The notes under the pieces are model-generated. The model did no database searches and was not told the origin of the DNA. It saw nothing but the letters and a program-made list of their open reading frames with translations. Shown one piece after another: positions 9,048-64,000 of a stretch of DNA of 64,000 bases. The stretch comes from a virus (Duplodnaviria > Caudoviricetes): IMG/VR virus record IMGVR_UViG_3300028591_000075, positions 64,001-128,000 of that record; one strand, 5' to 3'. Positions within the stretch are counted from its first letter, which is position 1, and each line of letters starts with the position of its first letter. The position numbers and the translations under genes were made by a program.

Positions 9048-9881
9048 ATGGTATCCAAGAAACTCCAAGACAAATTTTATGCCGCGCTCGAATCCCTGAA
9101 GGACGGCAAGAACGATTATATCCTCGAAGCTCTTGCCGCCGGTGCAAAGGCAACGTTCGAAGGCCTGCTCACCGGACAAGTGTCGGAGGATGGGACCTAT
9201 ATTCCGTCGAAGGACGAAGTGCCCCGTTCGGCATCAATCGGTCCCGATTCGTGCCCTAGGGTTCTGACCAAGGAAGATATCCAGAGGCTGATTCACGATC
9301 CGGATACTGAAAACGAAGCAGACCCCGAGGAACTGAACTTCGAAGACAACGAAGCCAAGCGTTTCCCGACCTACCCAGGCCAGTTCAGCGAGGAAGAAGA
9401 TCCGTTCTACTCCATGGTTGCCGAGGCTGTCACGAAGCTCGGAAATACCATCAACGAAATGAAAACAGCCGACAACGCCTCCATCATGGAAGCTATCCAC
9501 GAAGGGTTCAGTGCATGTTTCGAAAGCTCCGAAGAACAGAAATCCGAGGCCCGGTTTCCAATAATGTTCGCGGATGAGGACGTTATAGAAGACGCCGAAG
9601 TGGAAAAGGCTAAGTCCGGCGACACGACCGCCCTCGTTGAAAAACTGCGTGCAAAGGCGCACCCCGCCGGAAAGGGATTTGCCAGGCCGGAGGGACGTAT
9701 GTTCACCGAGCATGACCTTGCCGACATCATAGACATGCACACCAGAATGGTTGCACAGGATGAAGAACGCGGCCGGTTTGCAAAATGCATCCTCGATGAC
9801 CCCAACGAGAAGGCATGGTTCTTCGACGACTACAACTCCGAAGGCGCACATACCCCGTGGGCAACCTACATCAAGTGGTGA
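9048..9881 (+). CDS. Acidic hypothetical protein with two copies of the shared E-S/G module
   Basis: TATAAACT at 9011-9018, GAGG SD; modules KFYAALES..ATFEG and NASIMEA..ACFES. Confidence 0.85.
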   Translation: MVSKKLQDKFYAALESLKDGKNDYILEALAAGAKATFEGLLTGQVSEDGTYIPSKDEVPRSASIGPDSCPRVLTKEDIQRLIHDPDTENEADPEELNFEDNEAKRFPTYPGQFSEEEDPFYSMVAEAVTKLGNTINEMKTADNASIMEAIHEGFSACFESSEEQKSEARFPIMFADEDVIEDAEVEKAKSGDTTALVEKLRAKAHPAGKGFARPEGRMFTEHDLADIIDMHTRMVAQDEERGRFAKCILDDPNEKAWFFDDYNSEGAHTPWATYIKW

Positions 9882-9902
9882 TATTTTCATTTCGACTTCA
9901 TC

Positions 9903-9930
9903 AAATCCGCCGGCCCTCCGGTGGATTTTT
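9903..9930 (+). terminator. Intrinsic terminator
   Basis: aaatccgccgg-ccct-ccggtggattt followed by T tract. Confidence 0.7.
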
Positions 9931-9954
9931 AGTATTTTAAGATAGTTTTCCGCC

Positions 9955-10650
9955 ATGAGCATATATGTAGTAGGATCCAAACACAACAATTTCCTTGAAC
10001 TCGACGAGGGCAGGGAAAAGTTCTTAGTAGACGTTCCCCACAAGGGGGACAATATCGACAACCTGAACCCATGGTACTGTGAGCTCACCGCCCTGTACTA
10101 CATGTGGAAGCATTCGACCGCGAACATCATCGGCCTCGAACACTACCGCAGGTTCTTCGCTAACGCCAACAACCAGGGGTGGTCCAGGCTTACTAAGAAC
10201 CAGGCCAACGAGCTTCTCGACAAGTCGGACATCATCGTCACCGAGTTCTTCCACCGGAAGGACTACTCGGCGTTCATGTGGTTCGCCGATGCAAAGTACA
10301 TGAAGTGGCTCGATATATTCCTCTCGGTACTCGAAGAAACCGAGAAGAACCTCGGCACCAGGTTCGCCGATTACCTGAAAGGCCCGTCCCTCATCCAATG
10401 CAACATGTTCATCGGCAAGAAGCCGCTACTGGACAAGTATTGCAAGGACCTTTTCAACCTACTGAAGGCATACGACGAAAAGGCCGGCCTCGATGACAGC
10501 AACCGCCGCATGGACGGATACCTCGCCGAACACTTCTTCGGCTTCTGGTTGTCCCTGGCAAATGCCCGGATGTCCAAGGTCCCGAAACTGGAACTCAGGT
10601 ACCTCCGCACCGGTGTCCCGGAAGGCGAAAAAATCAGAACAATCTACTAA
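9955..10650 (+). CDS. DUF4422 (GT111-like, galactofuranosyltransferase-related) protein
   Basis: Signature GDNIxxLNPxYCELTALY..WK...IGLxHYRRFF, CNMFI and RxxGYLAE. Confidence 0.85.
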   Translation: MSIYVVGSKHNNFLELDEGREKFLVDVPHKGDNIDNLNPWYCELTALYYMWKHSTANIIGLEHYRRFFANANNQGWSRLTKNQANELLDKSDIIVTEFFHRKDYSAFMWFADAKYMKWLDIFLSVLEETEKNLGTRFADYLKGPSLIQCNMFIGKKPLLDKYCKDLFNLLKAYDEKAGLDDSNRRMDGYLAEHFFGFWLSLANARMSKVPKLELRYLRTGVPEGEKIRTIY

Positions 10651-10653
10651 ACA

Positions 10654-10684
10654 GAAAGGCCATCTCGCGAGAGATGGCCTTCTT
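10654..10684. terminator. Bidirectional intrinsic terminator between convergent genes
   Basis: aaggccatctc-gcga-gagatggcctt. Confidence 0.8.
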
Positions 10685-10701
10685 AAATTTTCATCGAACA
10701 A

Positions 10702-12084: not shown

Positions 12085-12110
12085 GGGTTTCCTCCATGAA
12101 GAAAACTACA

Positions 12111-24269: not shown

Positions 24270-24740
24270 ATGACCCTTCTTGAATCTTTCTGCGCCAATA
24301 TCGAGGACGAACTCGGACATACCCCGCTGGTCGAGGCTGCCCAGATGGCGGCCTTTGTCTTGCTCAATGATGAACCAATCCAGCTTGAAGGGTTCGGCGA
24401 TTTCATGAAGAGCCTCGGTCGGAAGGCTGGAAAGGCTGCTGCCATCGGCGCCCTGGCGTTCAACGTCGCCAATGCGAATGCCGCCCCCGTGAAAAAGAAC
24501 CACGGGCCGAATCCGAACCTGGCCAGCCACAAGCAGAGCACCAAGGTCTGCAACACGATGGTTCGCAATCTCTGGAATAACCCCCAGTACCAGGAACTTG
24601 AAACCAAGTACCTGCAGGAGGAACTGGACAAGCAGCAGAAGCAGGTCGAGGCCGGCAAGAGGGCCAGGGTCAATGAACAGAGAGCCTACACCGATGCCCA
24701 GATGCGGGCCATGAACGAAATCGCCTGTTCGACCAACTAG
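24270..24740 (+). CDS. Hypothetical protein with E-S/G module
   Basis: GATAAACT at 24232; LLES..LVEAA..LEG. Confidence 0.8.
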   Translation: MTLLESFCANIEDELGHTPLVEAAQMAAFVLLNDEPIQLEGFGDFMKSLGRKAGKAAAIGALAFNVANANAAPVKKNHGPNPNLASHKQSTKVCNTMVRNLWNNPQYQELETKYLQEELDKQQKQVEAGKRARVNEQRAYTDAQMRAMNEIACSTN

Positions 24741-28459: not shown

Positions 28460-28794
28460 CCCTGGGTCTCGTTGGCGGAAACTGCACCCGGCTTGTCGGT
28501 GCCACCGCCCATCATGCCGAGAGTGGTGCGGCCCGGCATGGTGAAACCGCCACCCTGGCCGAAACGTCCGAAGTACGAACGGTCAATGAGCGACTGGATG
28601 AACGGGTCCTTGGACCCGGTAGTCTGGTTCGGGATGATACCCTGGCTGCACTGGCCTATCATCGGGGTGTGCATGGTGGGGTTCACGTCGGTAGCGGAGG
28701 CTTCCATTACTGCATTCCAAAGTTTGGCCACGGTCTCGCAGAGAGCCGGGTCTTGGTCACGAAAATGGTCAATAAATGAAAGAAACCTGTCCAT
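28456..28794 (-). CDS. Small hypothetical protein with E-A module (leaderless)
   Basis: AATAAACT ends 7 nt before the ATG; DPALCETV..VMEA. Confidence 0.75.
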   Translation of the reverse strand: MDRFLSFIDHFRDQDPALCETVAKLWNAVMEASATDVNPTMHTPMIGQCSQGIIPNQTTGSKDPFIQSLIDRSYFGRFGQGGGFTMPGRTTLGMMGGGTDKPGAVSANETQG

Positions 28795-41942: not shown

Positions 41943-41946
41943 GACG

Positions 41947-42213
41947 ATGTCATCCGAGCGGCACTTTGCAGTCCGCGTGGACATTAAGAGCCTGGCAGCC
42001 AACAAGGACCTGCCGGGCCATTCTCTTGATTATCATGACCTTAAAGTGGAAGCGCCTATGCTCATGGAGCCGTCATACGGCACCCATGACGAGGCTGCTG
42101 CCAGGGTCCTGGACTTGATGGCACATGGACGGGGAGAGGAAATCGAGGTCGATCTTCCAAACGGACAACATTATAAAGGACCTCGATATTTTTATTACAC
42201 TACGAAAGGGTAA
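41947..42213 (+). CDS. Hypothetical protein
   Basis: Start MSSERH just after the upstream stop. Confidence 0.65.
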   Translation: MSSERHFAVRVDIKSLAANKDLPGHSLDYHDLKVEAPMLMEPSYGTHDEAAARVLDLMAHGRGEEIEVDLPNGQHYKGPRYFYYTTKG

Positions 42214-42218
42214 TACTT

Positions 42219-43535
42219 ATGGCAACAGGAATGGAAAATCTAGATCCGGAAAGCCGGAAAATCCTTGAACAGGCGATGTCGATGGATTCGGCAAATCGGG
42301 CCATGGGGATGAACGAGGTGCGTGCCGCGGAACAACGCAAGCTGGCCGAGGACATGGAAAGGAAGAATGCCGAGGCCCGACGCAGACGGGGAGCCGCAAT
42401 CGCCGGCGAGGACCCCGTTGTCCAGGCGATGAAGAGGCAGTCCCCAATCAAGCGCCGTAAGGGAATGGTGAAGCAGGAAGTTCCCATGCCGATGGCACAG
42501 CCGGAACAGATTGCTCCCGCCGTCCAGCTTCCTCCCGAGCAGACTCCTGCAGAAACCGCGATTGACACCGGGGCAATGCGCCAGGCTTTCGCGAAACTTA
42601 GCGGGACTAACCAGGCCCCGGTAATTCCGGAACCTCCCATGCCTGAACCTGAACCGGCCATTGAACCTCCTGTCCAGACACCTCCTGAACCGCCGCAAGT
42701 GCGCGTGACCGTTCCGGAGCAGGATTTCAATGACCACCCATTGGATTTCGATCCGTCGCGTGATGTCAATGTCTTTACGCCGATATCTCATCTTCCGTCC
42801 AAGGGCCTGTTCTATCCGGGTCAGTTGTTCGGTCAGTCGCTGAAACTTATCGACAACTATTACTTGGATGACATTGTTGACGGCTCGGCAAATACCAGGA
42901 CTGCGATCAACGCAATCCTCGGTCGCCGTATCCGCGGGGTTGACCCGTTGGACATCTTGACCATCGACGAGGCCTACATCCTTCACTGGCTGCGTGCATC
43001 TTCGTTCCCGAAGCATGGCCTGTGGCACCCTGGGTACAAGTGTCCCCACTGTCAGTTCGATACCGATACCGACAACGTGTACAACGATTTCCGTATCGGC
43101 TTCCGTAACTTAAAGTTTACATTGACGAAGGACATCGACGCGCTTGCCGCTCTGCATGGTACCAACGGGTACCATTCCGGTTTCCTGGATGACGGGCGCG
43201 AATGCCATGTGTATGTGCACCGCCTGAGACATGCGGTCGAACTGAACGACTTCATTGGCAAGTGGGAAAAGCGTAACGGGATGACTGCTCCTAACGCCAT
43301 CCGCAAGGCTGCCGGTGTCGCCACGGTCGTCGAAATCGAGGGTTGTGAGAATATGGACGAAAAGTTCGCCTATATATCCGAGCTCCCCGAAATCCAGAAG
43401 GAAAACTTTGAAAAGCTGGTTGTCGAAGGTACGGTTGCGTGCAACGTGTCTGCGGTACTCACCTGTGGTCGATGTGGAGGCGTGGTTGAAACACCATATC
43501 CCTTTCGAGTACAGTGGTTTGTTTCCAGTCTTTAA
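42219..43535 (+). CDS. Baseplate hub / tail assembly chaperone, gp26-like
   Basis: LPSKGLFYP, DILTIDEAYILHWLRASS, CPHC and CGRC. Confidence 0.72.
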   Translation: MATGMENLDPESRKILEQAMSMDSANRAMGMNEVRAAEQRKLAEDMERKNAEARRRRGAAIAGEDPVVQAMKRQSPIKRRKGMVKQEVPMPMAQPEQIAPAVQLPPEQTPAETAIDTGAMRQAFAKLSGTNQAPVIPEPPMPEPEPAIEPPVQTPPEPPQVRVTVPEQDFNDHPLDFDPSRDVNVFTPISHLPSKGLFYPGQLFGQSLKLIDNYYLDDIVDGSANTRTAINAILGRRIRGVDPLDILTIDEAYILHWLRASSFPKHGLWHPGYKCPHCQFDTDTDNVYNDFRIGFRNLKFTLTKDIDALAALHGTNGYHSGFLDDGRECHVYVHRLRHAVELNDFIGKWEKRNGMTAPNAIRKAAGVATVVEIEGCENMDEKFAYISELPEIQKENFEKLVVEGTVACNVSAVLTCGRCGGVVETPYPFRVQWFVSSL

Positions 43536-43719
43536 CATAGTGTCGCTTACCAAGGACAAGGCCCTGGTATCCGAGATAACCAACAACAGCATGGCGGATT
43601 GCGACCGGATGTTTATTCCCGAATTCCTGGAATTGCTTGCATACGCTGAACAGCGGTTCAGGAACATGTATGTTCAGACGAACGGATATGTTCCATTGGG
43701 CTCCCCAGGTACAATATAG
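43486..43719 (+). CDS. gp51-like chaperone segment (frameshift extension of the upstream gene, or TTG-initiated ORF)
   Basis: SMADCDRMFIPEFLELL resembles gp51-type SLxExExMxPWE; lies in the +1 frame overlapping the gp26-like end. Confidence 0.55.
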   Translation: MKHHIPFEYSGLFPVFNIVSLTKDKALVSEITNNSMADCDRMFIPEFLELLAYAEQRFRNMYVQTNGYVPLGSPGTI

Positions 43720-43772
43720 GGCCTCAAAGGTTATAAACTATCCGGTGATAATATAGTCGCCGGATCGTTTTT

Positions 43773-45800
43773 ATGAGTGGACTTTTTAACGGAAATTCTA
43801 GCGTGGCCCAAACCACCGCAGCTACAAAGGAAGTCGAGGCACCCAAGTCTTCGAATTCCAATGATTTCTCCGCGGCTATTGCATCCATAGGAACTGCCAT
43901 CGGGGAATTGAAGGAAGCCTTCCCGTCCATGATGGAAACGGCGTTTACCACCGTGATTTCCAGCGATGCGACAAACAATGCGCTGTATGACGCGCTTGCC
44001 TCGGCAACCTACGACAGCATGGCGGCATTGCATGATGAGGGGAAACTCGGACCGAACGAGCGAGAAAAATCTAGTGAGGCTGAGTCTCGTGGCGAACGCG
44101 GGTTTACTCGCGCCGAATTGCTTGCAATCGAAACTCTTGACCAGAATGAGCAACTGGCCAATGCAATATCTACAGCATTTGACAAGTCTCTCGAAAAATC
44201 GAAGTTTGACCGTGCTGCCGACGTTGGTGCAACCGCGGCCAAGGCCGCTGCCGATACTACCATCGATGCCACTGCCGAGGCTACGAAGGGTGTCGGGAAG
44301 ACCGGCCTATCCGTTGGTCTGGAAGCGACCAGGGGTGCACTCGACCTGGTGGGACAACTTCCCGCCGGTGTGATTGAGAGCGCCATTGCCCGTAACCCCG
44401 GCCCGTTGCTTGACCGGATGTTTGGCTCGCTTGAAAAGACCGGTACCAACGTCATCGACAAGGGTGTCGATGGCATGGCGGACACCGCGAAGAATGTAAG
44501 CTCGAAGACCATTGACAATGTTAAGAAGGGTGCATCCGATGTTCGTGATGCCTATGCGCAGGGTGAAGGCGAAGGCGAAGGCGAAGGTGAAGGTGAAGGG
44601 GAGAAACCAAAGGTTACTCCCAGGGCACCTATCGAAGCAACCAGCATGACATTGGGCACCCAGCCGAATATGGGCCTTGGTATGCCAAATTCCATGATGG
44701 GGCAGCCGAACCCAACTGGGGCCGACATCAGCCGTAAGCGCATGATGGATGACATGAGTATGAACTTCATGTCCAAAACGGCTCCGGATTTCATGTCGAA
44801 GGGCAACGAGGTATTTGACAAGATTTTGAATGATGAACTGACTGTCCATCTCGATGAGGATATTGGACAGTCGGTTGGCATGAGTATGCGTGGGCTTCCT
44901 TGGGGCGCGATGCTTAAAGGCGGTGGAATGCTCGCACTCGGTGCGGCCACCATTGCATCGCTTGGCGCCATTGCTACTGCGGGTAAAGAGTTGTGGGATT
45001 GGCACAAGGCCAATGAGGAAGCTGAAAAGAACCTTGACAACATTGCCGAGAACAGTGCCAAGGGAAATGAGCGCATGAAGAACGGGGTCAACAATGACCT
45101 CCGTGATGCCAATATCAAGGATGACAAGGCCAGTGTGGAACTTGCCAAGGCTGAAAACGGTATCGGCAACAGCATCCTGGGTTTCTTCGGTTACAAGACT
45201 GATGAAATCCGAGAAAAGGAAGCTGCGAAGATGCAGGCTAAGTCCGAACAGGCGATTGAGCAGCGTCGTTATAGGGAGCTTCTTGATCGTGCCGAGGCCT
45301 ACGGCATTAAGCGCACTGACAGCGAGGCCGTCAAGAAATGGGTGGAAGAACAGAAGAAACTTGCTACCCAGGCCGGTGTCAACGTCGAGGACAAGGGTGC
45401 TTTCATCCGGTTCCAGAACGAAGAGCTTAAACGGTACAAGGAGGCCCAGAAGAAGGCCGTCGAACAGGGTACCCAGCCGAACCAGCAGGGCCAGGGCCAG
45501 CATGGACAACAGGGTCAGCAAGGGCAGCAGCCGAACAACGGGGCACCCGATGCGGCTAATCAGGCGAATGGCGCTCCTATGGCCGCGGGTTCAAATACGA
45601 ATACGACACAGAATACGGTCAATGCCGGCACCGGTGCAATGACCGAGGATATTCTCAGTGCCGAGGAAAAGCTCAAACAGTACAAGTTGTACACCTTCGA
45701 GGGCATCCGCGATGCGCTGTTGCTCCCGGAAGTGCAGTCGATGTTCACCGCAACTGCACAGACCGCCGGTGCGTCTGTCGAACAGAAGTTGATGGGGTAA
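43773..45800 (+). CDS. Probable tape measure / gp29-like protein
   Basis: Ala/Gly-rich helical protein between chaperone and baseplate genes; TATAAACT at 43732. Confidence 0.55.
   Translation: MSGLFNGNSSVAQTTAATKEVEAPKSSNSNDFSAAIASIGTAIGELKEAFPSMMETAFTTVISSDATNNALYDALASATYDSMAALHDEGKLGPNEREKSSEAESRGERGFTRAELLAIETLDQNEQLANAISTAFDKSLEKSKFDRAADVGATAAKAAADTTIDATAEATKGVGKTGLSVGLEATRGALDLVGQLPAGVIESAIARNPGPLLDRMFGSLEKTGTNVIDKGVDGMADTAKNVSSKTIDNVKKGASDVRDAYAQGEGEGEGEGEGEGEKPKVTPRAPIEATSMTLGTQPNMGLGMPNSMMGQPNPTGADISRKRMMDDMSMNFMSKTAPDFMSKGNEVFDKILNDELTVHLDEDIGQSVGMSMRGLPWGAMLKGGGMLALGAATIASLGAIATAGKELWDWHKANEEAEKNLDNIAENSAKGNERMKNGVNNDLRDANIKDDKASVELAKAENGIGNSILGFFGYKTDEIREKEAAKMQAKSEQAIEQRRYRELLDRAEAYGIKRTDSEAVKKWVEEQKKLATQAGVNVEDKGAFIRFQNEELKRYKEAQKKAVEQGTQPNQQGQGQHGQQGQQGQQPNNGAPDAANQANGAPMAAGSNTNTTQNTVNAGTGAMTEDILSAEEKLKQYKLYTFEGIRDALLLPEVQSMFTATAQTAGASVEQKLMG
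44562..44603 (+). repeat. (GGYGAA)n hexamer repeat encoding (GE)7
   Basis: Directly visible. Confidence 0.9.
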
Positions 45801-45803
45801 TGT

Positions 45804-47144
45804 ATGGCGTGGTCAGCAAAGGAAATAAGAAAGAAGAAGTATTTGCCGTTTCCGGGTCATAACGACAAGGTTTCGAAGTCGTACCATTCTGAAAAGTTGC
45901 CGAACCCGAACGTTATCCGTATCGAGGTGCTGTCACCGTCGGCAAAGGCCGCATACCTGAATGGCGGTCTGTATGCAATGACCAACAAGTTCCAGCATGC
46001 CTTGATGGAAACGATGCTGTATGATGACGCGACGAAGCCGTTCTATGGATTTGTTGATCCCGAGGAAACTGCCGGTGTTACGTTTGGCGTGTCTGCATCA
46101 TGGGAAAAGGGAAACCACGGGTTCGGTGAAGTTGCCAAAGTGTTGAAGGGTGTGACCGGTGCTGTCTCCAGGGTTCCGGTTGTTGGTGCCGTCGGCAGTG
46201 TTGCTGGTGGCCTGATCGGGGCTGCAGAGAAGATTGGCAATTTTTCAAAGGATATGGCTAACATGGCTGGTCTAAATACCGATTCAACCGGCGCATGTAC
46301 CATGCGAGATTTCAAACGCGCAACGTTTGATTTTAATAAGACGGTGAAGTGCAAGTGGTATATGCCGGAACAGGAATATATGGCTCGGCTATCTATTTCC
46401 CGATTATTGACGCTCACGTTTCTGCGTTCGGCAAATATGGATGATAAGGATGTGTTGGGAAAGCTCACCAGTGCAATATCTGAATTAACTAGTAGTCAGG
46501 AATGGGAAAATACCATGTCATCCATAAGTTCCATTGGCAATGAAATTGCTGGAATGGGTAAGAGTATCGTAAAACTCGGGAAGAGCTACGCAACTGATGT
46601 CCTGGGTGGTGGTATTGTGAATGGGGCCACGGATCTAGCGAATGGCGCTGCTGAATGGATGGGTGATTTCCAAAATTCTGTTTCCGGCACATGGGGCTTG
46701 AATGAAAAGGCTGAAACTGCCAAAAATGCTCTTGCACCGAGTGAGGATACAAAGAGTCTTGCCGGTGATGTAATGAAACAAATCGTAAATGGGGGAACGG
46801 ACATTCTCATGAAAGTAAATTCGTTCTTTGGTGGAAACATCACGGTAAACCCATTCCCGGTGCGAGTTACAATCGGGCATATTCTGGATATTGAGCCGGT
46901 TGTCATTGAAAATGTTACGTTCCATTCAAGCAAGGAGCAGTTCATTTCGGAGGATGGGACACATATTCCACTGTACATTACAGCCGATATTAAATTTGGC
47001 ATGTGGATGACGCCTGACCCGAAAAAAGGTTTCATTCGATGGATGGGTGATGATGTGTTCAATAGTGGTAGGTATTTGAGGAGCGGCAAGGCCAGTGGGA
47101 ATCGGGGGACATCCGGTAACGGCGGTGGCACCAAGAAGAAATGA
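45804..47144 (+). CDS. Baseplate/tube-cap protein, gp48-like
   Basis: Position; C-terminal P..VTIG..L.IEPVVIENV.F....P.YITADI.F pattern. Confidence 0.55.
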   Translation: MAWSAKEIRKKKYLPFPGHNDKVSKSYHSEKLPNPNVIRIEVLSPSAKAAYLNGGLYAMTNKFQHALMETMLYDDATKPFYGFVDPEETAGVTFGVSASWEKGNHGFGEVAKVLKGVTGAVSRVPVVGAVGSVAGGLIGAAEKIGNFSKDMANMAGLNTDSTGACTMRDFKRATFDFNKTVKCKWYMPEQEYMARLSISRLLTLTFLRSANMDDKDVLGKLTSAISELTSSQEWENTMSSISSIGNEIAGMGKSIVKLGKSYATDVLGGGIVNGATDLANGAAEWMGDFQNSVSGTWGLNEKAETAKNALAPSEDTKSLAGDVMKQIVNGGTDILMKVNSFFGGNITVNPFPVRVTIGHILDIEPVVIENVTFHSSKEQFISEDGTHIPLYITADIKFGMWMTPDPKKGFIRWMGDDVFNSGRYLRSGKASGNRGTSGNGGGTKKK

Positions 47145-47156
47145 GGTGGATAGACT

Positions 47157-47609
47157 ATGGCAAAAGAAGAATTTCCGCGCTTTCGCGAACGCAACTTTCC
47201 GATTTTGAGTTCATTTAAGCTGCCGTTTTACCGTGGTGGTCGCCTTGACCTGGTGTGCGCCGACAGGTATGACACGCCTACCGCCTACAAGGTGTTTGCT
47301 GCCGCCAATAGGATAATGAACCCTATGCTGACCCGTCCGGGGATTCGACCCACCGACGAATCCATCCGTAACGAACTAGTTTTACGGGGGTACAGTGGCA
47401 GCGCACTGGAAGCGGAACTTCGCCGGATAAATGACCTCATGATACGTGGTGTCAGGGATTGGCTGGGTTATTCCGATTTCGGAAATGGAAATATCACCGA
47501 TGCCGAACCGGATCGTCTGATATTTGTCCCGTCACCGGATAGCGCTGTCCAATGGTACGATAGGTACAATGAACTGAATGAAGTGGTCGAGGAACAGGAC
47601 GACGAATAA
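47157..47609 (+). CDS. Baseplate wedge protein, gp53/LysM-like
   Basis: GRLDLVCADRYDTP..YKVFAAANRIMNP. Confidence 0.7.
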   Translation: MAKEEFPRFRERNFPILSSFKLPFYRGGRLDLVCADRYDTPTAYKVFAAANRIMNPMLTRPGIRPTDESIRNELVLRGYSGSALEAELRRINDLMIRGVRDWLGYSDFGNGNITDAEPDRLIFVPSPDSAVQWYDRYNELNEVVEEQDDE

Positions 47610-48967
47610 TGGGTGGAGTATCTAAAACAGGTTCAAACTTTGTAGTGGCGTTTTCACTGCCGAAGTCACAGAGCCCGGAAGTGGATGGGTATGTTGTCAT
47701 CAACGCACCCAGTGTTCGTGAATTCTCCATGTCGTTTCCATTGAACGCCATGCCAAGCGGCCATGCCACCTGTACCTTGAACCATCTTGCTGATATTCCG
47801 GTTGCCGGAAGCTATGGCTCGATGGTTATCCAGGAATACGGTGCTGACCAGAAGGATGACAAGGCCTTCGGGATTTACATCTCCAATTTTAGCCAGTCCC
47901 AGAGTACGACTGATAGCGTCGATATCTCGTTCGATTTTGTCATCGGTTCCAAGGAAGCCGATATGAAGCAGGTTAACTTTGCCTGCACCGGTACCAGTTC
48001 GACCGCGATGAAGGAAGTTGTGAAGAAGAGCGAGATGGAATGCATCTCCAGGTATGTCGATAATGGCAAGAATTCCGACACCATGGTATGGCGTCTGGTA
48101 AATGGTAACTTTGAAGAAAACATGAACTACATTGTGTCGATGTCCTATATTCCGTCGGATATTCTGTACTGGATATTTGACGAGATGAAGGGCAAGATTG
48201 TCATCTCCACATTCAATACCGAGAAGGCTTCGAAAGTGCGCTCGATGATGTTCTATTCGCAGGATGCGCTGCTATCGACCAAGGATGCCGTCTATAAACC
48301 AAAGGCACTTGCCGGCACCTCCATATATCGTTACCAGTCTATGACCAGGGAAGACCAGTCTTCCAGGTGGCGAGCATCCATGTTCCCTAACCTGATTGTT
48401 GACACTACAACCAACAATGGCCAGAAGGAAACCGGCGACTGTGGTGGGGAATGCCTCGATGTTATCATGACGACCGCTGGAGCGGGTGAATTGCCGTCCG
48501 GTATGAAGCCGTCTAGGAACAAGAACAGTTCCGGCGTATATGGCGAACCGAAACTGGCCATGTCCTTCCCGATGAATGGCCATAAGAAGTATGCCGTTGC
48601 CGATACCATTCGTGCAAGGCTCATGTCGGAGTATAGCCGAGTTGCCAAGGTGAGGATCTTCAACCATTTCGGTCCTCCGGTTGGCTCATGTGTTTATCTG
48701 ATGGCGAACAACTTGCTCATAAAGCAGGGCCAGTTGAATGCCGACCCGAATTATACAGCCCGCTACATTGTCCTGGAAAAGCAGGTGACCAAGAAGAATT
48801 CCGTAACGTCCGGTACCCTTGGTAATCCCGGTCAGACGATGACGAGCGAATATGAGACCGTACTTGTCCTGGCGACTAATTTCCAGTATTCGAAGAACCC
48901 ATCCAAGGAATATGGCATTGTCATGAATGCCGTTAAGCAAGTGGTTGATAACCTGAAGGAAAAGTAA
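47609..48967 (+). CDS. Baseplate hub protein, gp27-like
   Basis: Position before the spike gene; beta-rich; C-terminal G..V.L...YTARYIV. Confidence 0.55.
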   Translation: MGGVSKTGSNFVVAFSLPKSQSPEVDGYVVINAPSVREFSMSFPLNAMPSGHATCTLNHLADIPVAGSYGSMVIQEYGADQKDDKAFGIYISNFSQSQSTTDSVDISFDFVIGSKEADMKQVNFACTGTSSTAMKEVVKKSEMECISRYVDNGKNSDTMVWRLVNGNFEENMNYIVSMSYIPSDILYWIFDEMKGKIVISTFNTEKASKVRSMMFYSQDALLSTKDAVYKPKALAGTSIYRYQSMTREDQSSRWRASMFPNLIVDTTTNNGQKETGDCGGECLDVIMTTAGAGELPSGMKPSRNKNSSGVYGEPKLAMSFPMNGHKKYAVADTIRARLMSEYSRVAKVRIFNHFGPPVGSCVYLMANNLLIKQGQLNADPNYTARYIVLEKQVTKKNSVTSGTLGNPGQTMTSEYETVLVLATNFQYSKNPSKEYGIVMNAVKQVVDNLKEK

Positions 48968-48968
48968 T

Positions 48969-50198
48969 ATGCCAGAGTCAACCCTTAATGTAAGAACCAA
49001 TGGCCGAAGGCTTCCACTGCCCTTTTATTATGGACAGGTTGTCGGCACAATGGTTGATACCAATCATACCGGTGCTGTCCAGGCAATTATCAAGGGAGTT
49101 ACCGATGACTGGAAGGTAGAGGAACAGCCATGGGTGTACCCGCAGCTTGGTTTGGGTCTTGAAGCAGTCCCACAAGAAGGGTACTGGCTTCTCATCAAGT
49201 TTCTGAATGGCGACATCATGCAGGGACTTTACTATGGCGTATCTGCAACGCCGTCGTTCTTGCCGAAGGAATATACCGATAACTACCCGTTCCTTGCCGT
49301 GGCCAACCTCGGTGAGCATAACTTCCTCTATACCCACAACCGTGATACGCATGTGACCAAGATTGACAATCCGGGTAACGGTAGCAATATCACCTGGGGC
49401 CCGAATGGTGCAATCACCATCGAATCGGATAGTTACAGCAGCGAGGAAGGTGCGAAATCCCTGCCGGTTCTTACCGAGGGAACAATCGACATCTTTACCT
49501 GCATGCCGGTGGGTCATGGCGAAAGCGGCGTTACCCAGGGTAGTGAATACCTGGCCGTGTCCCATGTCTCGGCCATGACCATCGAGATGCTTCGCGGTGC
49601 CGGTCCCCAGGAGGAAAAACCGCCTAAGGTTGATGAAGGTGGCGATGGTTCTAACGTGGCCGAACTGTATGGTGCCGATGGCAATGTCGTTGAAACCGTG
49701 GCCATTGAATCCTGTGGTCCGGATGGCTTTGCTGTCCGTAATGGCAAGAAGGCCACCCATATCCTTATTTGCTGCACCGAAGGTGTGCCATTCTCCTCCA
49801 AACTCGCTGACTTCATGTCAAGCGACGCAAAGAGTGTCCCGCACTACCTCGTGGGTCTGGGCGGTGGTGCACCGGATGTCATCGGCGCGAACGACACCGA
49901 TCCTGCCGAATTGACCAACAACGGCTTTGTCCAGATGATTGATTTGGAGAACGACGCTACGGTCGGCAAGGACATGAAGTTGAGCAAGCTGCGCAACAAG
50001 AAGGCGAACGTGGATGCGATTGTCGTTATGTTCTACGGTGATGGCATCCTGAACCAGTATCAGAAAGATAAACTGGCATTGATTCGTACCAGTGCAGTGA
50101 AGACCTTCGGACTGGATGGCGAGCCGCCTATATTTGCATACCAGAGGTCGATGGTCGATCTGTCTTACATAAATTTGAAGGAATATGAGGATTCGTAA
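48969..50198 (+). CDS. Baseplate spike (gp5-like OB fold) fused to a degenerate amidase_2/PGRP-like domain
   Basis: YYGQVV..D....G.VQ..I.G..PW..P...VP.EG.W..I.FLNGD; C-terminal THILICCTEG, PHYLV, NVDAIVV. Confidence 0.7.
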   Translation: MPESTLNVRTNGRRLPLPFYYGQVVGTMVDTNHTGAVQAIIKGVTDDWKVEEQPWVYPQLGLGLEAVPQEGYWLLIKFLNGDIMQGLYYGVSATPSFLPKEYTDNYPFLAVANLGEHNFLYTHNRDTHVTKIDNPGNGSNITWGPNGAITIESDSYSSEEGAKSLPVLTEGTIDIFTCMPVGHGESGVTQGSEYLAVSHVSAMTIEMLRGAGPQEEKPPKVDEGGDGSNVAELYGADGNVVETVAIESCGPDGFAVRNGKKATHILICCTEGVPFSSKLADFMSSDAKSVPHYLVGLGGGAPDVIGANDTDPAELTNNGFVQMIDLENDATVGKDMKLSKLRNKKANVDAIVVMFYGDGILNQYQKDKLALIRTSAVKTFGLDGEPPIFAYQRSMVDLSYINLKEYEDS

Positions 50199-52060
50199 TG
50201 GCCGCAAAGACTTGCCAAGAAGTCCTTGATGGGGACAAGCAGAACCTTACCGGTGTCACCGGTAACGTGGTTCCGGCTAACCCGGAGCCAACGTCGGATT
50301 CCAAGCTGTCGCTCAATGACAAGGTCAATGAGTTCTTTGACATATTTAACGATACGTCGAAGGCTATCCAGAAGTCGGCAACTGACCTGTACATGTACGA
50401 CTGCTCCGACCATCTATATGACTGGATTACTGACCTGTGCCCATGGTTGAAGACGGGCCTCAAGGCGGTGGATTCTGCCAAGAAGTTCATGAATTCGTTG
50501 AGTAGTGGCGTGAAGTTGAAGGACTTCATGGCCACCAATACCGTGACGAAGGCAATCTGTAACGCGATTGCGACATTCTACGGGACCCTGATTGGCTGGC
50601 TGGAAATATGTACCAAGGCTGCGTTTGTGCTGTTTGAGAAGATTGATGCCGCTAGAAAGAAACTCGAAAAGGCGATGAAGCGCATTACCAATGCTACGCT
50701 GGCTTGTTTGCTTGACATTTACGATGCTATTGACAAGTATTTGCAGAACACTATTGAGCTTTCTCTTGCTGTTGACTGGAACGGCCTCATCAAGTTCATG
50801 ACGAAGTGCCCGTGCGTTTCTAGGTTCATCGCGTATATAACCGGTTGCGATAAGGATGATGACGGGAATAGCATTTCCGACAATCCTACCGAAATCGTGA
50901 ACTGTATCAAAGAAAAGTTCTCCTTCCTTGATGGAGCCACTCTTGCTACCGGCCTCTCGAAGCTGATGGACAAGTACATCAGGCAGTATCTCGTATTGTT
51001 CTTTGACTTTATCAAGTTCGGTATCGATTTCCTGTTCAGCATGATTATCGCCCCGTTCCGTTGGCTCATCAAGCAGTATGCCGACTTCCTGCGCAAGAAG
51101 TGGGATGTTACAGTAATGATAGAAGGTTGCAAGGAAGCACATCTTGACTGTCTGTTCGTGTACACCACCGAATATGAAGGCGACCGTGAGTATTACGGCA
51201 TGTCGATTATCGACATGATAACCACCCTGAAACGGATGATACCGTGTCTGGAATACGGGTGTCCCGGTTTGAGTGACAAGATCCGAAACAAGGTAAAGAA
51301 GCTGAACGAAGACCTTCGCCTCACCGATAAGTTCTGGGACCGTGCGTTCGAGGCGGACCTGTACATGTGCTGTATCGATGCCGATGCGGAACGTGCGTAC
51401 ACGTTCAAGCAGTTGCGCGAAATGTGGGATTCCTTGTGGGATAGATTGGTCTCCAAGACCCAGAAGGCTGCTGTCGTCGTGGAAGAGAACCGAAAGTCCG
51501 TCACCCTCGGCTCGTTCGGTGTCGCTATCGACGAGGCAAGGCGCGAGGCCGGCGTGAAGCCCAAGGACCCGTATGCCAGCTTCGACGACCCGTACAAGCA
51601 GGCCGCTACCTTCGCGACCGGTCTGGACCTGGAAAACAACATCATCAACGGTGATGAGTATGTGTCCAGCAACGATGAGGATATCCTGATAAAGGTTGCC
51701 GGTTCCATCGTGCAAGGCATGAAGAACGGTGATGACTACTACAATGAGAAGTGGTACCAGTACCTGAGGTTCAAGGCTGTCAAGGAGTTCAGCGACGGTG
51801 GCATGGACAAGCTGCAGAATTACTCCGATGAACTGACCGAGTCCTACAAGAGGGCCCCGGTGCGTAGCGCGTACATGCCTGGCCCACGCCGTCGTCTTCC
51901 GCTTGAAATCGATACGGATGAGCGTCCTCCTAACTATAAGCCGGATAACGACTATAACCAGCAAAGGGTCGAGGTTCTGCTGGCCACTACCTGGGAACCT
52001 TCCGGAAAGTCCGAGTCGCTGTCCGATTACTATGCGAGAATGTATGCAAAGGCGGTGTAG
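50198..52060 (+). CDS. Cys-rich hypothetical protein (620 aa) in the baseplate operon
   Basis: Long coupled ORF. Confidence 0.8.
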   Translation: MAAKTCQEVLDGDKQNLTGVTGNVVPANPEPTSDSKLSLNDKVNEFFDIFNDTSKAIQKSATDLYMYDCSDHLYDWITDLCPWLKTGLKAVDSAKKFMNSLSSGVKLKDFMATNTVTKAICNAIATFYGTLIGWLEICTKAAFVLFEKIDAARKKLEKAMKRITNATLACLLDIYDAIDKYLQNTIELSLAVDWNGLIKFMTKCPCVSRFIAYITGCDKDDDGNSISDNPTEIVNCIKEKFSFLDGATLATGLSKLMDKYIRQYLVLFFDFIKFGIDFLFSMIIAPFRWLIKQYADFLRKKWDVTVMIEGCKEAHLDCLFVYTTEYEGDREYYGMSIIDMITTLKRMIPCLEYGCPGLSDKIRNKVKKLNEDLRLTDKFWDRAFEADLYMCCIDADAERAYTFKQLREMWDSLWDRLVSKTQKAAVVVEENRKSVTLGSFGVAIDEARREAGVKPKDPYASFDDPYKQAATFATGLDLENNIINGDEYVSSNDEDILIKVAGSIVQGMKNGDDYYNEKWYQYLRFKAVKEFSDGGMDKLQNYSDELTESYKRAPVRSAYMPGPRRRLPLEIDTDERPPNYKPDNDYNQQRVEVLLATTWEPSGKSESLSDYYARMYAKAV

Positions 52061-57908: not shown

Positions 57909-58039
57909 ATTTATTTTCCTGCAGGATTTTCCGATAGATTTATATACTTTACTGGCTCGAATGAACGAGTTTTGGGGCAGAACCCAGCCACTATTTGCTA
58001 TAAACTGCTGCTGTAAAGAATAAAACGAGGTTTAACCTT

Positions 58040-58954
58040 ATGGAATGGATTGTTGAGGACAGCCTTACCAACTTCAACTTTTGGAGCGGAGCAGCCGATA
58101 ACGCCAAGCTGCTGGAATACAGCGAACTGAAAGAACTCGACGAGGCGTTACCGAGTTATTTCGAAGGGCGTACTCCTACCGCGACCGAAATCAACGATTT
58201 GTTCTGGTTCGAGTTTGGGACAGTGTGCTCCCTCATCGGCCTCAAATACGACAAGACCCGTGACGCGGTTATCCGCGGCGACGATGATGAAGGTGATGCC
58301 GAAATGGAATCGGTCGGTACGGACATGAATGCAGTGTTTGAATGTATCCGTAAGGACAATCCGGCCCTCGCCGACGCAATCGAAGCCGGTTACAAGGCGT
58401 GCATGGAAGGTGCCATCGGTGACCCGCATGACCGTTTTGCTGACCACACCTATTCTCCCGATGTAGTGCTGGATGACCAGCCGAACTTCACTGTCATCAT
58501 CTCCACCGATTCCATGGATCCTCATCCGGCCCGTGTGCTGGTACAGGCCCGTGATGAAGCCTCCGCTATTGACGAGGCGGTGGAGTCCCTTGTCGCGCAT
58601 GGCATGTCCGGTTATATCGAGGAGGATGAGCCTGAACACCCGGAAAATTACATCGAAGTGTCCAAGGGTTGGATTCCGTCCCATCTTATCCAGGTAAACC
58701 CACGGACCGGTTCCGATATCCGTACCGCCTATGTTCCCGAGCAGTTCTTGTCCGCCCTCGTAAATGACGACCGAAGCGGGATGAGTTCCGAGGATGAAGC
58801 CGAATTTGAGGCATTCTGTCAAGACCTTGCCGAGGAAGGAATTCCCGAATCCGGCTTGTACCCAGTTTGTGGCCCTGATGGCGAATTCTGGGACGTTGAC
58901 GACGATCCGTACAGCGGAAAGTCTGTTCTCTGCTCGGTGTTTGTCGGTCGCTAA
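58040..58954 (+). CDS. Acidic multi-module hypothetical protein with internal E-G module
   Basis: TATAAACT at 57999, GAGG SD; NPALADAIEAGYKACMEG. Confidence 0.85.
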   Translation: MEWIVEDSLTNFNFWSGAADNAKLLEYSELKELDEALPSYFEGRTPTATEINDLFWFEFGTVCSLIGLKYDKTRDAVIRGDDDEGDAEMESVGTDMNAVFECIRKDNPALADAIEAGYKACMEGAIGDPHDRFADHTYSPDVVLDDQPNFTVIISTDSMDPHPARVLVQARDEASAIDEAVESLVAHGMSGYIEEDEPEHPENYIEVSKGWIPSHLIQVNPRTGSDIRTAYVPEQFLSALVNDDRSGMSSEDEAEFEAFCQDLAEEGIPESGLYPVCGPDGEFWDVDDDPYSGKSVLCSVFVGR

Positions 58955-60419: not shown

Positions 60420-60878
60420 CTAATTGTCTTCTTCTACCTCGAAGTCTGAAATAGCTGCAGAAATTACTTTCTTTCCTGCAGCAACAGCATTTGGATAGGA
60501 TTTTGAAATATAAAGAACGTCCTCGTATATGTCACGGAACGGTAGTTTGAGTTTGTCATATTTTTCAGCCAGACCGGAGCTTATCCGTTTGTCGTATCCA
60601 GTGCTGCGAGTATCCAATAAGCCAACTGCGGCATATTCAGCATCACTCAACGGTGTACCGTCGTCAGCTTTGTCAATGATATATTCTATCACGGCGGTTA
60701 GATAGTGTGAATCACCGGATGCATTAAACATAGATTCCAGTTTAGCCTTGGTATAGATGACGTTCGATGCCTCACAGAAAGCTTGGAAACCTTCTTGAAG
60801 AATAGGCAGCATATCCATGTGGCCGGATATCTTGCATACACTTTCAAGGAAGGTATTGAATTTTTGTTCTGATTTCAT
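60420..60878 (-). CDS. Hypothetical protein with N-terminal E-A module; AT-richer than neighbours
   Basis: AGGAG SD; FLESVCKIS..EGFQAFCEAS. Confidence 0.8.
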   Translation of the reverse strand: MKSEQKFNTFLESVCKISGHMDMLPILQEGFQAFCEASNVIYTKAKLESMFNASGDSHYLTAVIEYIIDKADDGTPLSDAEYAAVGLLDTRSTGYDKRISSGLAEKYDKLKLPFRDIYEDVLYISKSYPNAVAAGKKVISAAISDFEVEEDN

Positions 60879-60891: not shown

Positions 60892-61680
60892 TTAAATATC
60901 TAATGTTTCCAAATCACCGTCCGCATCGGCAGTATTGGTTTCCTCACTTGTACCGCCTTCCTCGGCTACCGGTTCGGTACCGACTTCTGTTTCATTACCT
61001 TCTTCTGAGGTGCCTTCCGTAGCACCTTCCTCGGGAGCCGGTTCCTCGGCAGCCCAGTCATCCGGGTTCAGTTCGTTTCCGGAAGTATCTAGTTCGGAAC
61101 TGCCGAAGCCCATCGCGGTTTCATCAAAGCCGTTCGGGTCGGTTGTGGTAATGTCATCGCCAAGCGCATCGAAGGAACCGCTTACCATGGCATCGGAAAT
61201 TTCCTTATCGACGGTAGCTTCCTGGGGGAGTCCATCATCGCCGCTAATGCCGAATACGTTGACGCCTTGGGCTTCATGCGGGTTAGCCCCGACCTTCTGG
61301 CGGAGTTGCTCGGCCACCGTGCTGGACTGGGAGGCTTCGACAAGAACTTCCTTGAACAACTTGGTAGCGGTCTCGGCCAGCACCTGCGGACAGTCGAAGG
61401 AATTAACAAACTTGGCGTAGAAGCCCATCATGGATTCATATTTGGCGGAAACGGGCTTTCCGGCCAGTGCGCGGTCGCATGACTTTACCCATCCTTCGGC
61501 ACGTTCGCCATATACTTCAATTTGGTTCCGTAGGTCAGCGAGCTGGTCAAGCTGTTCCTGGGACAGACTGCCATTGTCGTGCTCCATCCACAGTAGCGCG
61601 TCAATCTGATCGACGAGACCGGAATACCTGGTTTCGGTATTGTCCGGTTCTCCGAATGCATTTTTATTGTCAAGTGGCAT
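60892..61680 (-). CDS. Acidic hypothetical protein with E-A module
   Basis: TATAAGTC variant upstream; LAETATKLFKEVLVEAS. Confidence 0.8.
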   Translation of the reverse strand: MPLDNKNAFGEPDNTETRYSGLVDQIDALLWMEHDNGSLSQEQLDQLADLRNQIEVYGERAEGWVKSCDRALAGKPVSAKYESMMGFYAKFVNSFDCPQVLAETATKLFKEVLVEASQSSTVAEQLRQKVGANPHEAQGVNVFGISGDDGLPQEATVDKEISDAMVSGSFDALGDDITTTDPNGFDETAMGFGSSELDTSGNELNPDDWAAEEPAPEEGATEGTSEEGNETEVGTEPVAEEGGTSEETNTADADGDLETLDI

Positions 61681-62308: not shown

Positions 62309-62309
62309 G

Positions 62310-62335: not shown

Positions 62336-62336
62336 C

Positions 62337-62594
62337 TTAAATGAACCGTCTTGTCAGTGGGTTAGTGCATAGCACCGCCACCGACAGTTTCTTTTTCTGA
62401 CTGGGCCTGATACGGATGCGCTTCTTCGGAGGCACGGGGGTCTTCGGTACCGGCGCAGCAGTCTTTGGCGCCACAGGCTTCTGTGGTGCCGTTTCGTTTT
62501 GAACCTGGGGCGTTTCGGTCACAACCGGTTCGATGACATCGGGATTGATGTCGATTTTTTCGGTTTCGGTAGTATTTTTATTCTTGCGTGCCAT
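62337..62594 (-). CDS. Small basic/Pro-rich hypothetical protein (leaderless)
   Basis: TATAAACT ends 7 nt before the ATG. Confidence 0.7.
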   Translation of the reverse strand: MARKNKNTTETEKIDINPDVIEPVVTETPQVQNETAPQKPVAPKTAAPVPKTPVPPKKRIRIRPSQKKKLSVAVLCTNPLTRRFI

Positions 62595-62668
62595 AAAATG
62601 CAGTTTATATAACCCGAATGATGTAGTTTTCCTGCAGATACCTGAAAACTTAATCCTAGGAGTTAAAA

Positions 62669-63184
62669 ATGTCAGGAGAAGCTATCATTACCCTTATCGC
62701 GGTCGCCGTCATATTTGTCGTATTCGGCATTCCGCTCTACGTGGTTCGTCGCCGCAACCGCATCCAGGTTGAAGAGCCCGAACAGGAACAGCTCAGCGTG
62801 GGAGCCACTCCGGTGAACGATGCCGGTCCGCAGCTCACACAGGAACCGGCCATTACGTCCGGTCCAATCGCAGTGGATCCGAACCCGGTTCCTCCTGTGA
62901 AGCCAGCCCGTAGGCGTGTTGAAAAGAAGGCCACGGCTTCCCCGGTCGCTGAAAAGAAGACTGCCCGCCGCAGCAAGCCGAAGACCGACATTCCCAGCAA
63001 GGAACTCAAAAAGGCATTGAAGGAAGTTGCCGACATGGACAAGGCCAAGCCGGTTCTTTCCAAGGAATTTGCCTTGAAGCACGGGCTCAAATTGGATGAA
63101 AAGAAGACCAAGACCACCAAGAAGACTACCAAGTCCACCAAGACGTCCAAGAAGTCTGCTCCGAAATCCAAGAAGAGCAAGTAA
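62669..63184 (+). CDS. Membrane-anchored Lys-rich protein
   Basis: N-terminal TM helix followed by RRRNR; histone H1-like K/T/S tail; AGGAG SD. Confidence 0.8.
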   Translation: MSGEAIITLIAVAVIFVVFGIPLYVVRRRNRIQVEEPEQEQLSVGATPVNDAGPQLTQEPAITSGPIAVDPNPVPPVKPARRRVEKKATASPVAEKKTARRSKPKTDIPSKELKKALKEVADMDKAKPVLSKEFALKHGLKLDEKKTKTTKKTTKSTKTSKKSAPKSKKSK

Positions 63185-63211
63185 GCCATTTCCCATATAC
63201 CTCACTGAGGT

Positions 63212-63236
63212 AGGGGCGCCTTCGGGCGCCCCTTTT
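63212..63236 (+). terminator. Intrinsic terminator
   Basis: aggggcgcc-TTCG-ggcgcccct+TTT. Confidence 0.85.
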
Positions 63237-63269
63237 CCTATAAACTGGAACCTGTAGAGGAAGAACGAC

Positions 63270-64000
63270 ATGGAACTGAGACATAGGCAATTCATCAACT
63301 CGCTTGTTTCGCTTGCTAACGAGAGCAATCGACCGCTTATTGAATGCGCAATCAAGGAATACGTGGTGCTGGAAGGCACCGGCAATTTCTTCAACCGCGC
63401 CAAGGCCCTTGCTGGCAACCTGAAAAACAAGATTGCTGGCTTTGCCGGTGACTCCAAGCAGGCTTATGCCAATACCCATCAGCCGCAGCAATCCCAGCCG
63501 CAGCAGTCGAAAGGAAGCACCTCTGGTCTCAAACAGCGCGAATTTACTCCTCAGCAGCAGAAGGCCAGGGAGTACCTTATTGACAATGACCGCAAAACCT
63601 GGGAGCATGACTACAATCGTTTCTTGCAGGCATGTGATGACATTACCTATTTCTTGAAAACATACGGAAACCGCGAATTCAACCTGATGCGCCAGACACC
63701 CGATTTCAAGAAAGCCGAGAAGCGCGGAACCTTGATGGATGACTATATCAGGGTAAACCCCCAAAAAATTCGCGACGAACACCGTTCTGCATACAGGAAC
63801 ATCATGGACTCGGTATGCAAGATCAGTCCGCAACATCGTGCCCTCGTTGAATCCATATTGTCAATCTATGACATTACCGAAGGTGTTACCCGTCATCGTA
63901 TAATCCCGCTGTGCGAATCCAGCAACAGGGATTATGCGCTTTCTCAGTTGAAGAATGACATGGCCATGGTCGAAGTGTTCGTTACTCGACATGGTATTTA
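63270..64000 (+). CDS. Hypothetical protein (incomplete) with two E-G modules
   Basis: TATAAACT at 63239, GAGG SD, MELRHRQFINSL...; open to the window end; missing from the ORF track. Confidence 0.8.
   Translation, partial: MELRHRQFINSLVSLANESNRPLIECAIKEYVVLEGTGNFFNRAKALAGNLKNKIAGFAGDSKQAYANTHQPQQSQPQQSKGSTSGLKQREFTPQQQKAREYLIDNDRKTWEHDYNRFLQACDDITYFLKTYGNREFNLMRQTPDFKKAEKRGTLMDDYIRVNPQKIRDEHRSAYRNIMDSVCKISPQHRALVESILSIYDITEGVTRHRIIPLCESSNRDYALSQLKNDMAMVEVFVTRHGI

Follow-up and report, generated by a model that had tools for sequence, protein, structure and literature searches.

The DNA analysed here, a window of 64,000 bp, corresponds to positions 64001-128000 in the 253,312-bp record of an uncultured T4-like jumbo phage and encodes several late proteins that share a segment of about 30 residues, hereafter the tag, which ends in a glutamate. 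According to its head genes the phage is of T4 type: the major capsid protein (PF07068, 216 bits) and the portal (PF07230, 230 bits) both belong to T4-type families, and a prohead protease is encoded at genome positions 135972-136712, 8 kb past the window, with a Peptidase_S77 match above the cut-off (PF03420, 53.8 bits) at 136005-136541. This protease is 31% identical to T4 gp21, with the NHP (His) and S-x-RG (Ser) motifs aligned, and it also matches phrog_207 (4e-33). A second, weaker Peptidase_S77 match at genome 207089-207427 (23.6 bits) stays below the cut-off. As for cultured T4-like phages, their capsid proteins reach about 30% identity at most, and no match to a cultured phage came from a megablast search with 12 kb of the window. 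Complete relatives with direct terminal repeats measure about 420 kb. The gene set of the genome consists of heuristic calls.

Genes for the portal, capsid protein, protease and scaffold are neighbours of tagged genes. The original prediction had placed the tag on at least eight unrelated late proteins, and all peptides quoted in it were found at the open reading frames that it named. The tagged proteins of the window and their tags are listed below, where proteins are named after window coordinates, a trailing minus denotes the minus strand, and a slash follows the terminal Glu of the tag.

9048-9881, plus strand: 9048 protein, a 277-aa late protein with tag 1, an acidic linker, tag 2 and a C-terminal cargo
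9069-9161, plus strand: tag 9048a, residues 8-38, ending in ATFE/G; 44.8 bits
9435-9524, plus strand: tag 9048b, internal, residues 130-159, ending in ACFE/S; 45.0 bits
28456-28794, minus strand: 28794- protein, 112 aa, with an N-terminal tag and a Gly-rich 81-aa payload
28702-28794, minus strand: tag 28794, residues 1-31, ending in AVME/A; 25.0 bits (15.6 when left out of training)
58040-58954, plus strand: 58040 protein, 304 aa, with an N-terminal phrog_5149 domain, an internal tag and an acidic 181-aa cargo
58322-58408, plus strand: tag 58040, residues 95-123, ending in ACME/G; 29.8 bits (20 when left out of training)
60420-60878, minus strand: 60878- protein, 152 aa, with an N-terminal tag and an acidic 116-aa payload
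60771-60860, minus strand: tag 60878, of the 'FMESVC' subtype, residues 7-36, ending in AFCE/A; 42.4 bits
63270-64000, plus strand: 5' part of the 63270 protein (475 aa, running to window coordinate 64697), with two tags
63285-63374, plus strand: tag 63270a, residues 6-35, ending in VVLE/G; 23.7 bits
63792-63881, plus strand: tag 63270b, internal, residues 175-204, ending in DITE/G; 16.4 bits

In Pfam-A and PHROGs, no match covers the tag in any tagged protein, and neither the 9048 nor the 28794- protein belongs to a family of these collections. The only tagged-protein region with a family match is the N-terminal part of the 58040 protein, where the first ~75 residues (window 58040-58270) form a separate phrog_5149 domain. 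In other phages this domain occurs as an untagged stand-alone protein of 76-151 aa (L008-L010).

One tag family in the phage genome

With a profile that was rebuilt on 160 tags from other genomes, ten copies of the tag, carried by eight proteins of the phage, score 16-58 bits, against a maximum of 6.0 bits in shuffled proteomes. The members are the 9048 protein (both copies), 28794-, 58040, 60878- and the 63270 protein (both copies), as well as g12383, g12800 and g148862, which lie outside the window. Of the window proteins counted originally, five with seven copies thus belong to the family, as do three proteins elsewhere in the genome, while 61680-, 24270 and 32538- drop out.

The check proposed with the prediction, a hidden Markov model of its eight segments run on the proteome, also succeeds, returning 11 domains at 19.6-41.6 bits; no score in 20 shuffled proteomes exceeds 8.0 bits, and the proteome in reversed form reaches 3 bits. 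Iteration of the profile inside the genome brought no growth beyond the 11 domains. Leaving out one protein at a time recovers only 58040 (20 bits), 28794 (15.6 bits), g148862 (11 bits) and, marginally, both 9048 copies, which indicates that the copies within this one genome are too diverged for a small profile. In a library of 1.84 billion cluster representatives, 136 clusters match the 11-copy alignment (A2) at E <= 1e-3. Many of them are intermediates between the subtypes of this genome, and the commonest subtype among them is FMESVC.

The three window segments left outside the family are the following.

61336-61428, minus strand: tag-like segment of the 262-aa protein 60892-61680 (61680-), ending in VLVE/A; not a member by profile
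24273-24389, plus strand: weak tag-like N-terminus of the 156-aa 24270 protein, ending in IQLE/G; no significant profile score
32440-32538, minus strand: weak tag-like N-terminus (32538-) with its true start at the Met at 32538, ending in LFNE/K; profile score not significant

The 61680- segment scores 27.7 bits only if it is itself in the training set and 2 bits otherwise, although its orthologues retain VLLE/S and VLVE/A, and 32538- has Lys, not a small residue, after Glu. These three share only a loose pattern of helix, loop, helix and hydrophobic-Glu. With a helix-2-only profile and with the database-derived one, they were not recovered, nor were g942, g130555, g130945, g20225, g38742, g142565, g27594, g146081 and g135769, which are candidates at the level of the pattern only. 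Segments of this kind, including about ten further tag-like N-termini that are significant by no profile, are what a chance or compositional likeness among alanine- and glutamate-rich helices would predict. For the core family this explanation is already refuted by the bit scores of the ten copies relative to the shuffled maximum and by the 136 library clusters, and for the tag in general it is hardly credible. A derivation of the tag as a copy of part of the phage's own scaffold protein was rejected as well, the scaffold (g136720) having no profile match.

The tag consists of an amphipathic helix 1, a short loop, often with Pro or Asn, and an amphipathic helix 2, and it ends in two hydrophobic residues and Glu, followed by Gly, Ala or Ser. 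With positions counted backwards from Glu as P1, P6 in helix 2, five residues ahead of Glu, is aromatic and P4 is small; P1' denotes the residue after Glu. The rough consensus reads K-F-x-x-F-L-E-S-L-K, a loop (often D-N or N-x-P), L-I-E-[AS]-I-x-x-G-[FY]-x-x-C-F-E and then G/A/S. Secondary structure taken from AlphaFold2 models shows two helices per tag, the second stopping at or just beyond Glu: residues 4-16 and 23-42 for 9048a (Glu38), 119-137 and 144-158 for 9048b (Glu159), 3-14 and 21-35 for 63270a, where the second stops at Glu35, and 164-185 and 187-203 for 63270b (Glu204). Only secondary structure was used because the models are of low confidence, with predicted local distance difference test (pLDDT) values of 53.5 for the 63270 protein and 51.1 for the 9048 protein.

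Glu stands at P1 in all ten genome copies and in 147 of the 156 library copies, and Gly, Ala or Ser at P1' in 137 of the latter. P2 is mainly Phe or Cys in the library sample, and P3 is Cys in 63 copies, followed by Phe (45), Leu (14), Thr (13), Ile (7) and Val (6). Cys fills 125 of the 312 P3 and P2 positions, and the commonest subtype holds three Cys. Glycocins are helix-loop-helix peptides too, and this likeness, along with the frequent Cys, suits a recognition leader for some other enzyme, for example a SunS-type protein glycosyltransferase, similar to leaders of ribosomally synthesized and post-translationally modified peptides, instead of a capsid address. Several subtypes, however, are entirely without Cys (such as 9048a), the cargo is 60-400 residues of unrelated protein and not a short core peptide, and no linkage to a modifying-enzyme gene was seen near the tagged genes. 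Because the Glu-small junction also depends on downstream cargo and the capsid site matches it, as described below, an enzyme leader is very unlikely.

According to their position in the protein, 116 of the 156 library copies are N-terminal, 31 internal and 9 C-terminal. Four library proteins of 329-411 aa (P0181, P0182, P0185, P0186) carry the tag at their very C-terminal end with 0-3 residues after it, in a polarity opposite to that of a leader, and three of the four have Thr after Glu.

Cargo exchange at the tag borders

With the tags masked, no payload matches another payload in BLASTP below 1e-3 among 18 tagged or tag-like proteins, which agrees with the prediction that the carriers are unrelated. 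The 60878- payload, for instance, is unrelated to g12383 and g12800, though the tags of all three are nearly the same. In the library, 153 cargo segments fall into 102 BLAST groups. These groups and the cargo swaps among relatives provide comparative support for a portable tag on varied cargo.

The 9048 and 63270 families also display the predicted use of the tag inside proteins and twice per protein, between exchangeable segments. Among 56 homologues of the 9048 protein, the match spans residues 1-43, 119-160 or 1-158/160 and is followed by divergence, so that the breakpoints of homology (residues 43, 119 and 158-160) coincide with the ends of tags 1 and 2. The C-terminal cargo that follows tag 2 falls into at least six unrelated groups. 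Stand-alone forms of tag, linker and tag only, 159-174 aa long, occur in the same family. In the 55 homologues that carry tag 1, its Glu is invariant and the next residue is Gly or Ser (Asn in two).

As for the 58040 family, 48 of its 50 homologues have the tag, with an invariant Glu followed by Gly, Ala or Ser in all 48, while P0157 and P0158 consist of the N-terminal domain alone. In P0151-4 this domain is missing and the tag becomes N-terminal. P0155 and P0156 have the 58040 cargo (49-50% identity) behind another tag subtype, of the 'FMEGVC...FQAFCE' type. Similarly, P0108, a distant homologue of the 63270 protein, has an N-terminal tag of the FMESVC type, and in it ALVE/S and ALCE/A flank the conserved C-terminal domain. 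Both cases imply that tag subtypes are interchangeable on homologous cargo. A tandem duplication of tag and cargo in P0109 was set aside as probably an assembly artefact (1.7-kb contig).

The 63270 protein has a third conserved Glu/Ala site (residue 296) beyond the window, before its C-terminal domain, and among 25 homologues E35, G36, E204 and E296 are almost invariant. In this protein (L017:7270-8697), the C-terminal ~150 residues are a strongly conserved domain for which Pfam, PHROGs and PDB sequences gave no match, and the protein atlas offers only one weak lead, a neighbour at rank 24 (score 0.90) that is annotated DarT/PARP.

Searches of Pfam, PHROGs, PDB sequences and the protein atlas yielded nothing solid on the function of the cargo. 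Its charge bears on another explanation, according to which the tagged proteins are components of the prohead core (scaffold) and assemble into it by way of the helix hairpin. Cutting at the Glu sites would then break these acidic proteins down and clear them from the head ahead of DNA entry, and none of them would be host cargo. Most fragments have an isoelectric point (pI) of 4-5 and a net charge down to -35, as T4 gp22, gp67 and gp68 are said to have. The tag-linker-tag-only forms and the acidic, low-complexity protein g27594 with its 18 cleavage-like sites (see below) are of the kind expected for a core, and in T4 processing divides the core proteins into several fragments (PMC9026906). 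Core components, however, are usually conserved, whereas the segments here are hypervariable (102 groups) and swapped between close relatives, a pattern that resembles the polymorphic internal-protein loci of T-even phages (PMC3012670). Some cargo is moreover basic or domain-like, namely the 63270 fragments (pI 8-9.4) and the Dps-like domain in g146081. Since mostly acidic cargo fits core proteins or DNA mimics better than basic internal proteins, a core role is the main rival to cargo loading, and we rate it as unlikely.

The Glu-small junction, the protease and late transcription

The prediction that the tag ends in Glu and a small residue holds, and the presence of this junction is related to what follows it. 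In the library, Glu plus a small residue is found in 123 of 141 copies followed by at least 25 residues and in 2 of 10 copies followed by at most 10. The same split is seen at tag 2 of the 9048 family, where 25 homologues have F-E at the tag end (23 of them F-E-[GAS]), all with at least 88 residues after it, while 16 homologues end 1-4 residues past the Phe and none of these has Glu. Thus, Glu is present in 25 of 40 cargo-bearing homologues versus 0 of 16 ending ones (Fisher p = 1e-5). In the relative G002, whose orthologues are ~60% identical, Glu and the small residue are retained at nine of nine comparable sites, including CAE/G at tag 63270b.

The remaining 15 cargo-bearing homologues have a Cys-rich tag-2 variant, G-C-D-x-C-F with no Glu, which looks like a non-cleavable junction. 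In every case the cargo behind this variant is one of two kinds, either 68 aa long and of a 'GSGCT...' type or of a 'TFNYD...' type; its carriers are P0026, P0036-38, P0049, P0053, P0055 and P0058-59, and P0023, P0032, P0035 and P0061-63.

These 15 homologues and the nine C-terminal library copies are compatible with a generic folding, dimerisation or regulatory hairpin, in which no proteolysis takes place and Glu-small is a helix cap. A helix cap, however, does not account for the loss of Glu exactly where nothing follows, for the lack of Asp or Gln enrichment at P1, or for a Glu and small residue that are invariant across deep divergence. The capsid protein, moreover, has the same junction in a phage that encodes a Glu-specific protease family, and we therefore consider a non-proteolytic hairpin quite improbable.

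With regard to the capsid protein, its N-terminal region aligns with T4 gp23, and the sequence AKFE/SAN falls a few residues from T4 LTE/AEIGG. At this predicted maturation site, Glu followed by Ser, Ala or Gly is invariant in 80 related capsid proteins (57-99% identity), and P2 and P3 vary. The proteome contains 28 instances of A-x-[FMC]-E-[GAS], versus 6.6 +/- 2.6 in shuffles (maximum 16). No such enrichment is seen for control patterns that have Asp or Gln at P1 or a non-small P1', or that are read in reverse. After subtraction of seven core-tag junctions and two helix-1 matches (g12383, g12800), 19 occurrences are left, which include the capsid protein, g135769 (61 aa, just upstream of the protease), g27594 and the tag-like N-termini g942, g130945 and g146081. 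The enrichment could not be replicated in G002, whose record overlaps only from ~114 kb and is without most head genes; stop-codon recoding or frameshifts suspected in G002 were ruled out.

Four of these sites lie in g27594, three of them in near-identical repeats. This 604-aa protein of the head cluster (genome 27594-29408, minus strand, L012:7594-9408) is very acidic and of low complexity, and has in total 18 hydrophobic-x-hydrophobic-Glu/small sites. Its three repeats, DAKFE/SIL or DAKLE/SII, resemble the predicted maturation site of the capsid protein, and g27594 is a candidate for a heavily processed core protein. Another of these proteins, g146081 (genome 146081-146563, plus strand, L014:18081-18563), has a 34-residue tag-like leader ending in ARME/A, not significant by the tag profile, in front of a Dps/ferritin-like domain (phrog_858, 1.8e-8) and may be a packaged DNA-binding protein.

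The tagged genes also share a late-transcription context. The motif TATAAACT occurs 9 times in the window versus 0.72 expected and 39 times in the genome, usually 4-42 nucleotides (nt) ahead of a start codon, and it precedes many head and tail genes. The consensus of T4 late promoters is TATAAATA. Together with the gp55-like late sigma factor encoded in the genome (phrog_234), TATAAACT fits a T4-style late promoter. The copies next to tagged genes of the window are the following.

9011-9018, plus strand: late-promoter-like motif TATAAACT before 9048
57999-58006, plus strand: late-promoter-like motif TATAAACT before 58040
63239-63246, plus strand: late-promoter-like motif TATAAACT before 63270
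62602-62609, minus strand: TATAAACT at the head of the minus-strand block from 62594 to 60420, which holds 61680- and 60878-

The prediction that such a motif stands before all tagged genes or the operon that holds them is correct in part. The exact motif precedes 9048, 58040 and 63270 (31-41 nt from the ATG) and 32538- (26 nt), but 28794-, 24270 and 61680- have only variants with one mismatch, AATAAACT in the case of 28794- and GATAAACT in the case of 24270; 60878- lies downstream of 61680- in an operon.

Two other places in the window carry the motif. A divergent pair of TATAAACT copies 54 nt apart (window 6042-6110), at 6042-6049 on the minus and 6103-6110 on the plus strand, lies between a minus-strand gene of 2225 aa and a plus-strand gene of 831 aa. 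The called ATG of the former (6076) is upstream of its own motif, and its true start is thus probably further in. At window 40428-52060 there are seven consecutive plus-strand reading frames of 409-675 aa with no PHROG match, and TATAAACT is found at 43732.

A candidate capsid-targeting propeptide

Judging from sequence comparisons, the tag is probably a capsid-targeting propeptide that is removed by the prohead protease, and hence a longer, internally reusable variant of the capsid-targeting sequence (CTS) of T4; we hold this reading with moderate confidence. Late in infection, the tagged proteins would be made alongside the head proteins, and the helix hairpin would dock them into the prohead core during its assembly. 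Once the gp21-type serine protease had become active in the prohead, it would cut after the terminal Glu of the tag, at the same type of Glu-small junction that is predicted to mature the capsid protein, and each cargo segment would be freed from its own tag, possibly to be retained in the virion and delivered to the host. Proteins with two or three tags would then be polyproteins cut into several pieces. Since both targeting and release would reside in the tag, cargo could be exchanged by recombination at the tag borders, as is seen in the relatives. The portable packaging and processing tag originally proposed is in line with the modularity, the Glu-small junction, the S77 protease and the matching capsid site, whereas three of its proposed copies do not belong to the family.

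Several observations weigh against a capsid-targeting propeptide. The motif of T4 in its literal form, with Leu or Ile at P3, is present in only 21 of the 156 library copies, the tag is three times longer than the 10-residue sequence of T4, and one copy in four lies elsewhere than at the N-terminus. The 15 cargo-bearing 9048 homologues with a tag 2 lacking Glu imply that cleavage is not obligatory or not universal. Strong acidity (pI 4-5) sets most of the predicted cargo fragments apart from the basic DNA-binding internal proteins of T4. A gap of 25 residues displaces the alignment to the gp23 cleavage site, leave-one-out recovery inside this genome is weak for several copies, and AlphaFold2 confidence is low (mean pLDDT 51-53, tags 57-74). 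The phage is also uncultured.

The T4 CTS is found in IPI, IPII, IPIII and Alt and is removed by gp21. T4 gp21 cuts after Glu in L/I-x-E, and the internal proteins of T-even phages are diverse, with only the CTS in common (PMC9026906, PMC3012670). The present system is similar in that it belongs to a phage with gp23-, gp20-, gp21- and gp55-like genes, in which a conserved leader ending in Glu stands before proteins that are unrelated and undergo rapid exchange, cutting is predicted between this Glu and a small residue, and the genes lie in late operons beside head genes. In contrast to T4, however, the tag is a helix-loop-helix of ~30 residues and not of 10, P3 and P2 are mostly Cys, Phe or Met instead of Leu/Ile-x, internal and C-terminal positions account for about a quarter of the copies where the T4 leader is strictly N-terminal, and two or three tags may occur in one protein with mostly acidic cargo between them. 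The two systems are likened by architecture and junction; similarity of the tag to the T4 sequence itself was not demonstrated.

In phiKZ, 201phi2-1 and SPN3US, propeptides of head and inner-body proteins are cut at S/A-x-E (or A-x-E) by the prohead protease and are thought to guide incorporation (PMC9026906, PMC10052503, PMC5694885). As is predicted here, many head proteins of a jumbo phage are processed after Glu, and one protein can have several sites. These phages, however, represent another lineage, whereas capsid, portal and protease of the present phage are T4-type, and the constrained residue position differs, P3 being mostly Cys or Phe here and not S/A/G. Nor are the phiKZ-like propeptides reported as one conserved portable module of 30 residues.

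A short helical element also suffices to bring arbitrary cargo into a shell in the case of the C-terminal helix-turn-helix of the P22 scaffolding protein, which binds coat protein and loads foreign cargo, and of encapsulin cargo-loading peptides. The analogy with the tag is functional only; the P22 and encapsulin elements stand at the C-terminus, no protease removes them, and we know of no sequence relation between them and the tag. Thus, the principle is known from T4, while a structured module of 30 residues, its internal or repeated use in polyproteins, interchangeable subtypes and ~100 cargo groups are not described for the T4 CTS in the searchable literature.

If the tag works as proposed, it would extend the T4 CTS, the only well-studied "load and clip" signal of phages, to a structured, reusable signal with polyprotein cargo, and would mark by sequence alone more than 100 candidate virion-delivered proteins in uncultured jumbo phages. 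The Glu-small junction that vanishes without cargo is a clean prediction for proteomics. With the tag, injected anti-defence proteins could be sought directly, and it would be a candidate tool for bringing proteins into large capsids. For the 250-420-kb T4-like clade of rumen and gut as a whole, we suggest only tentatively, as a possibility short of being probable, that the tags may be a general loading code for prohead docking, release and delivery, and that the more than 100 cargo families may form a fast-evolving injected arsenal for host takeover and anti-defence, some of it made as polyproteins.

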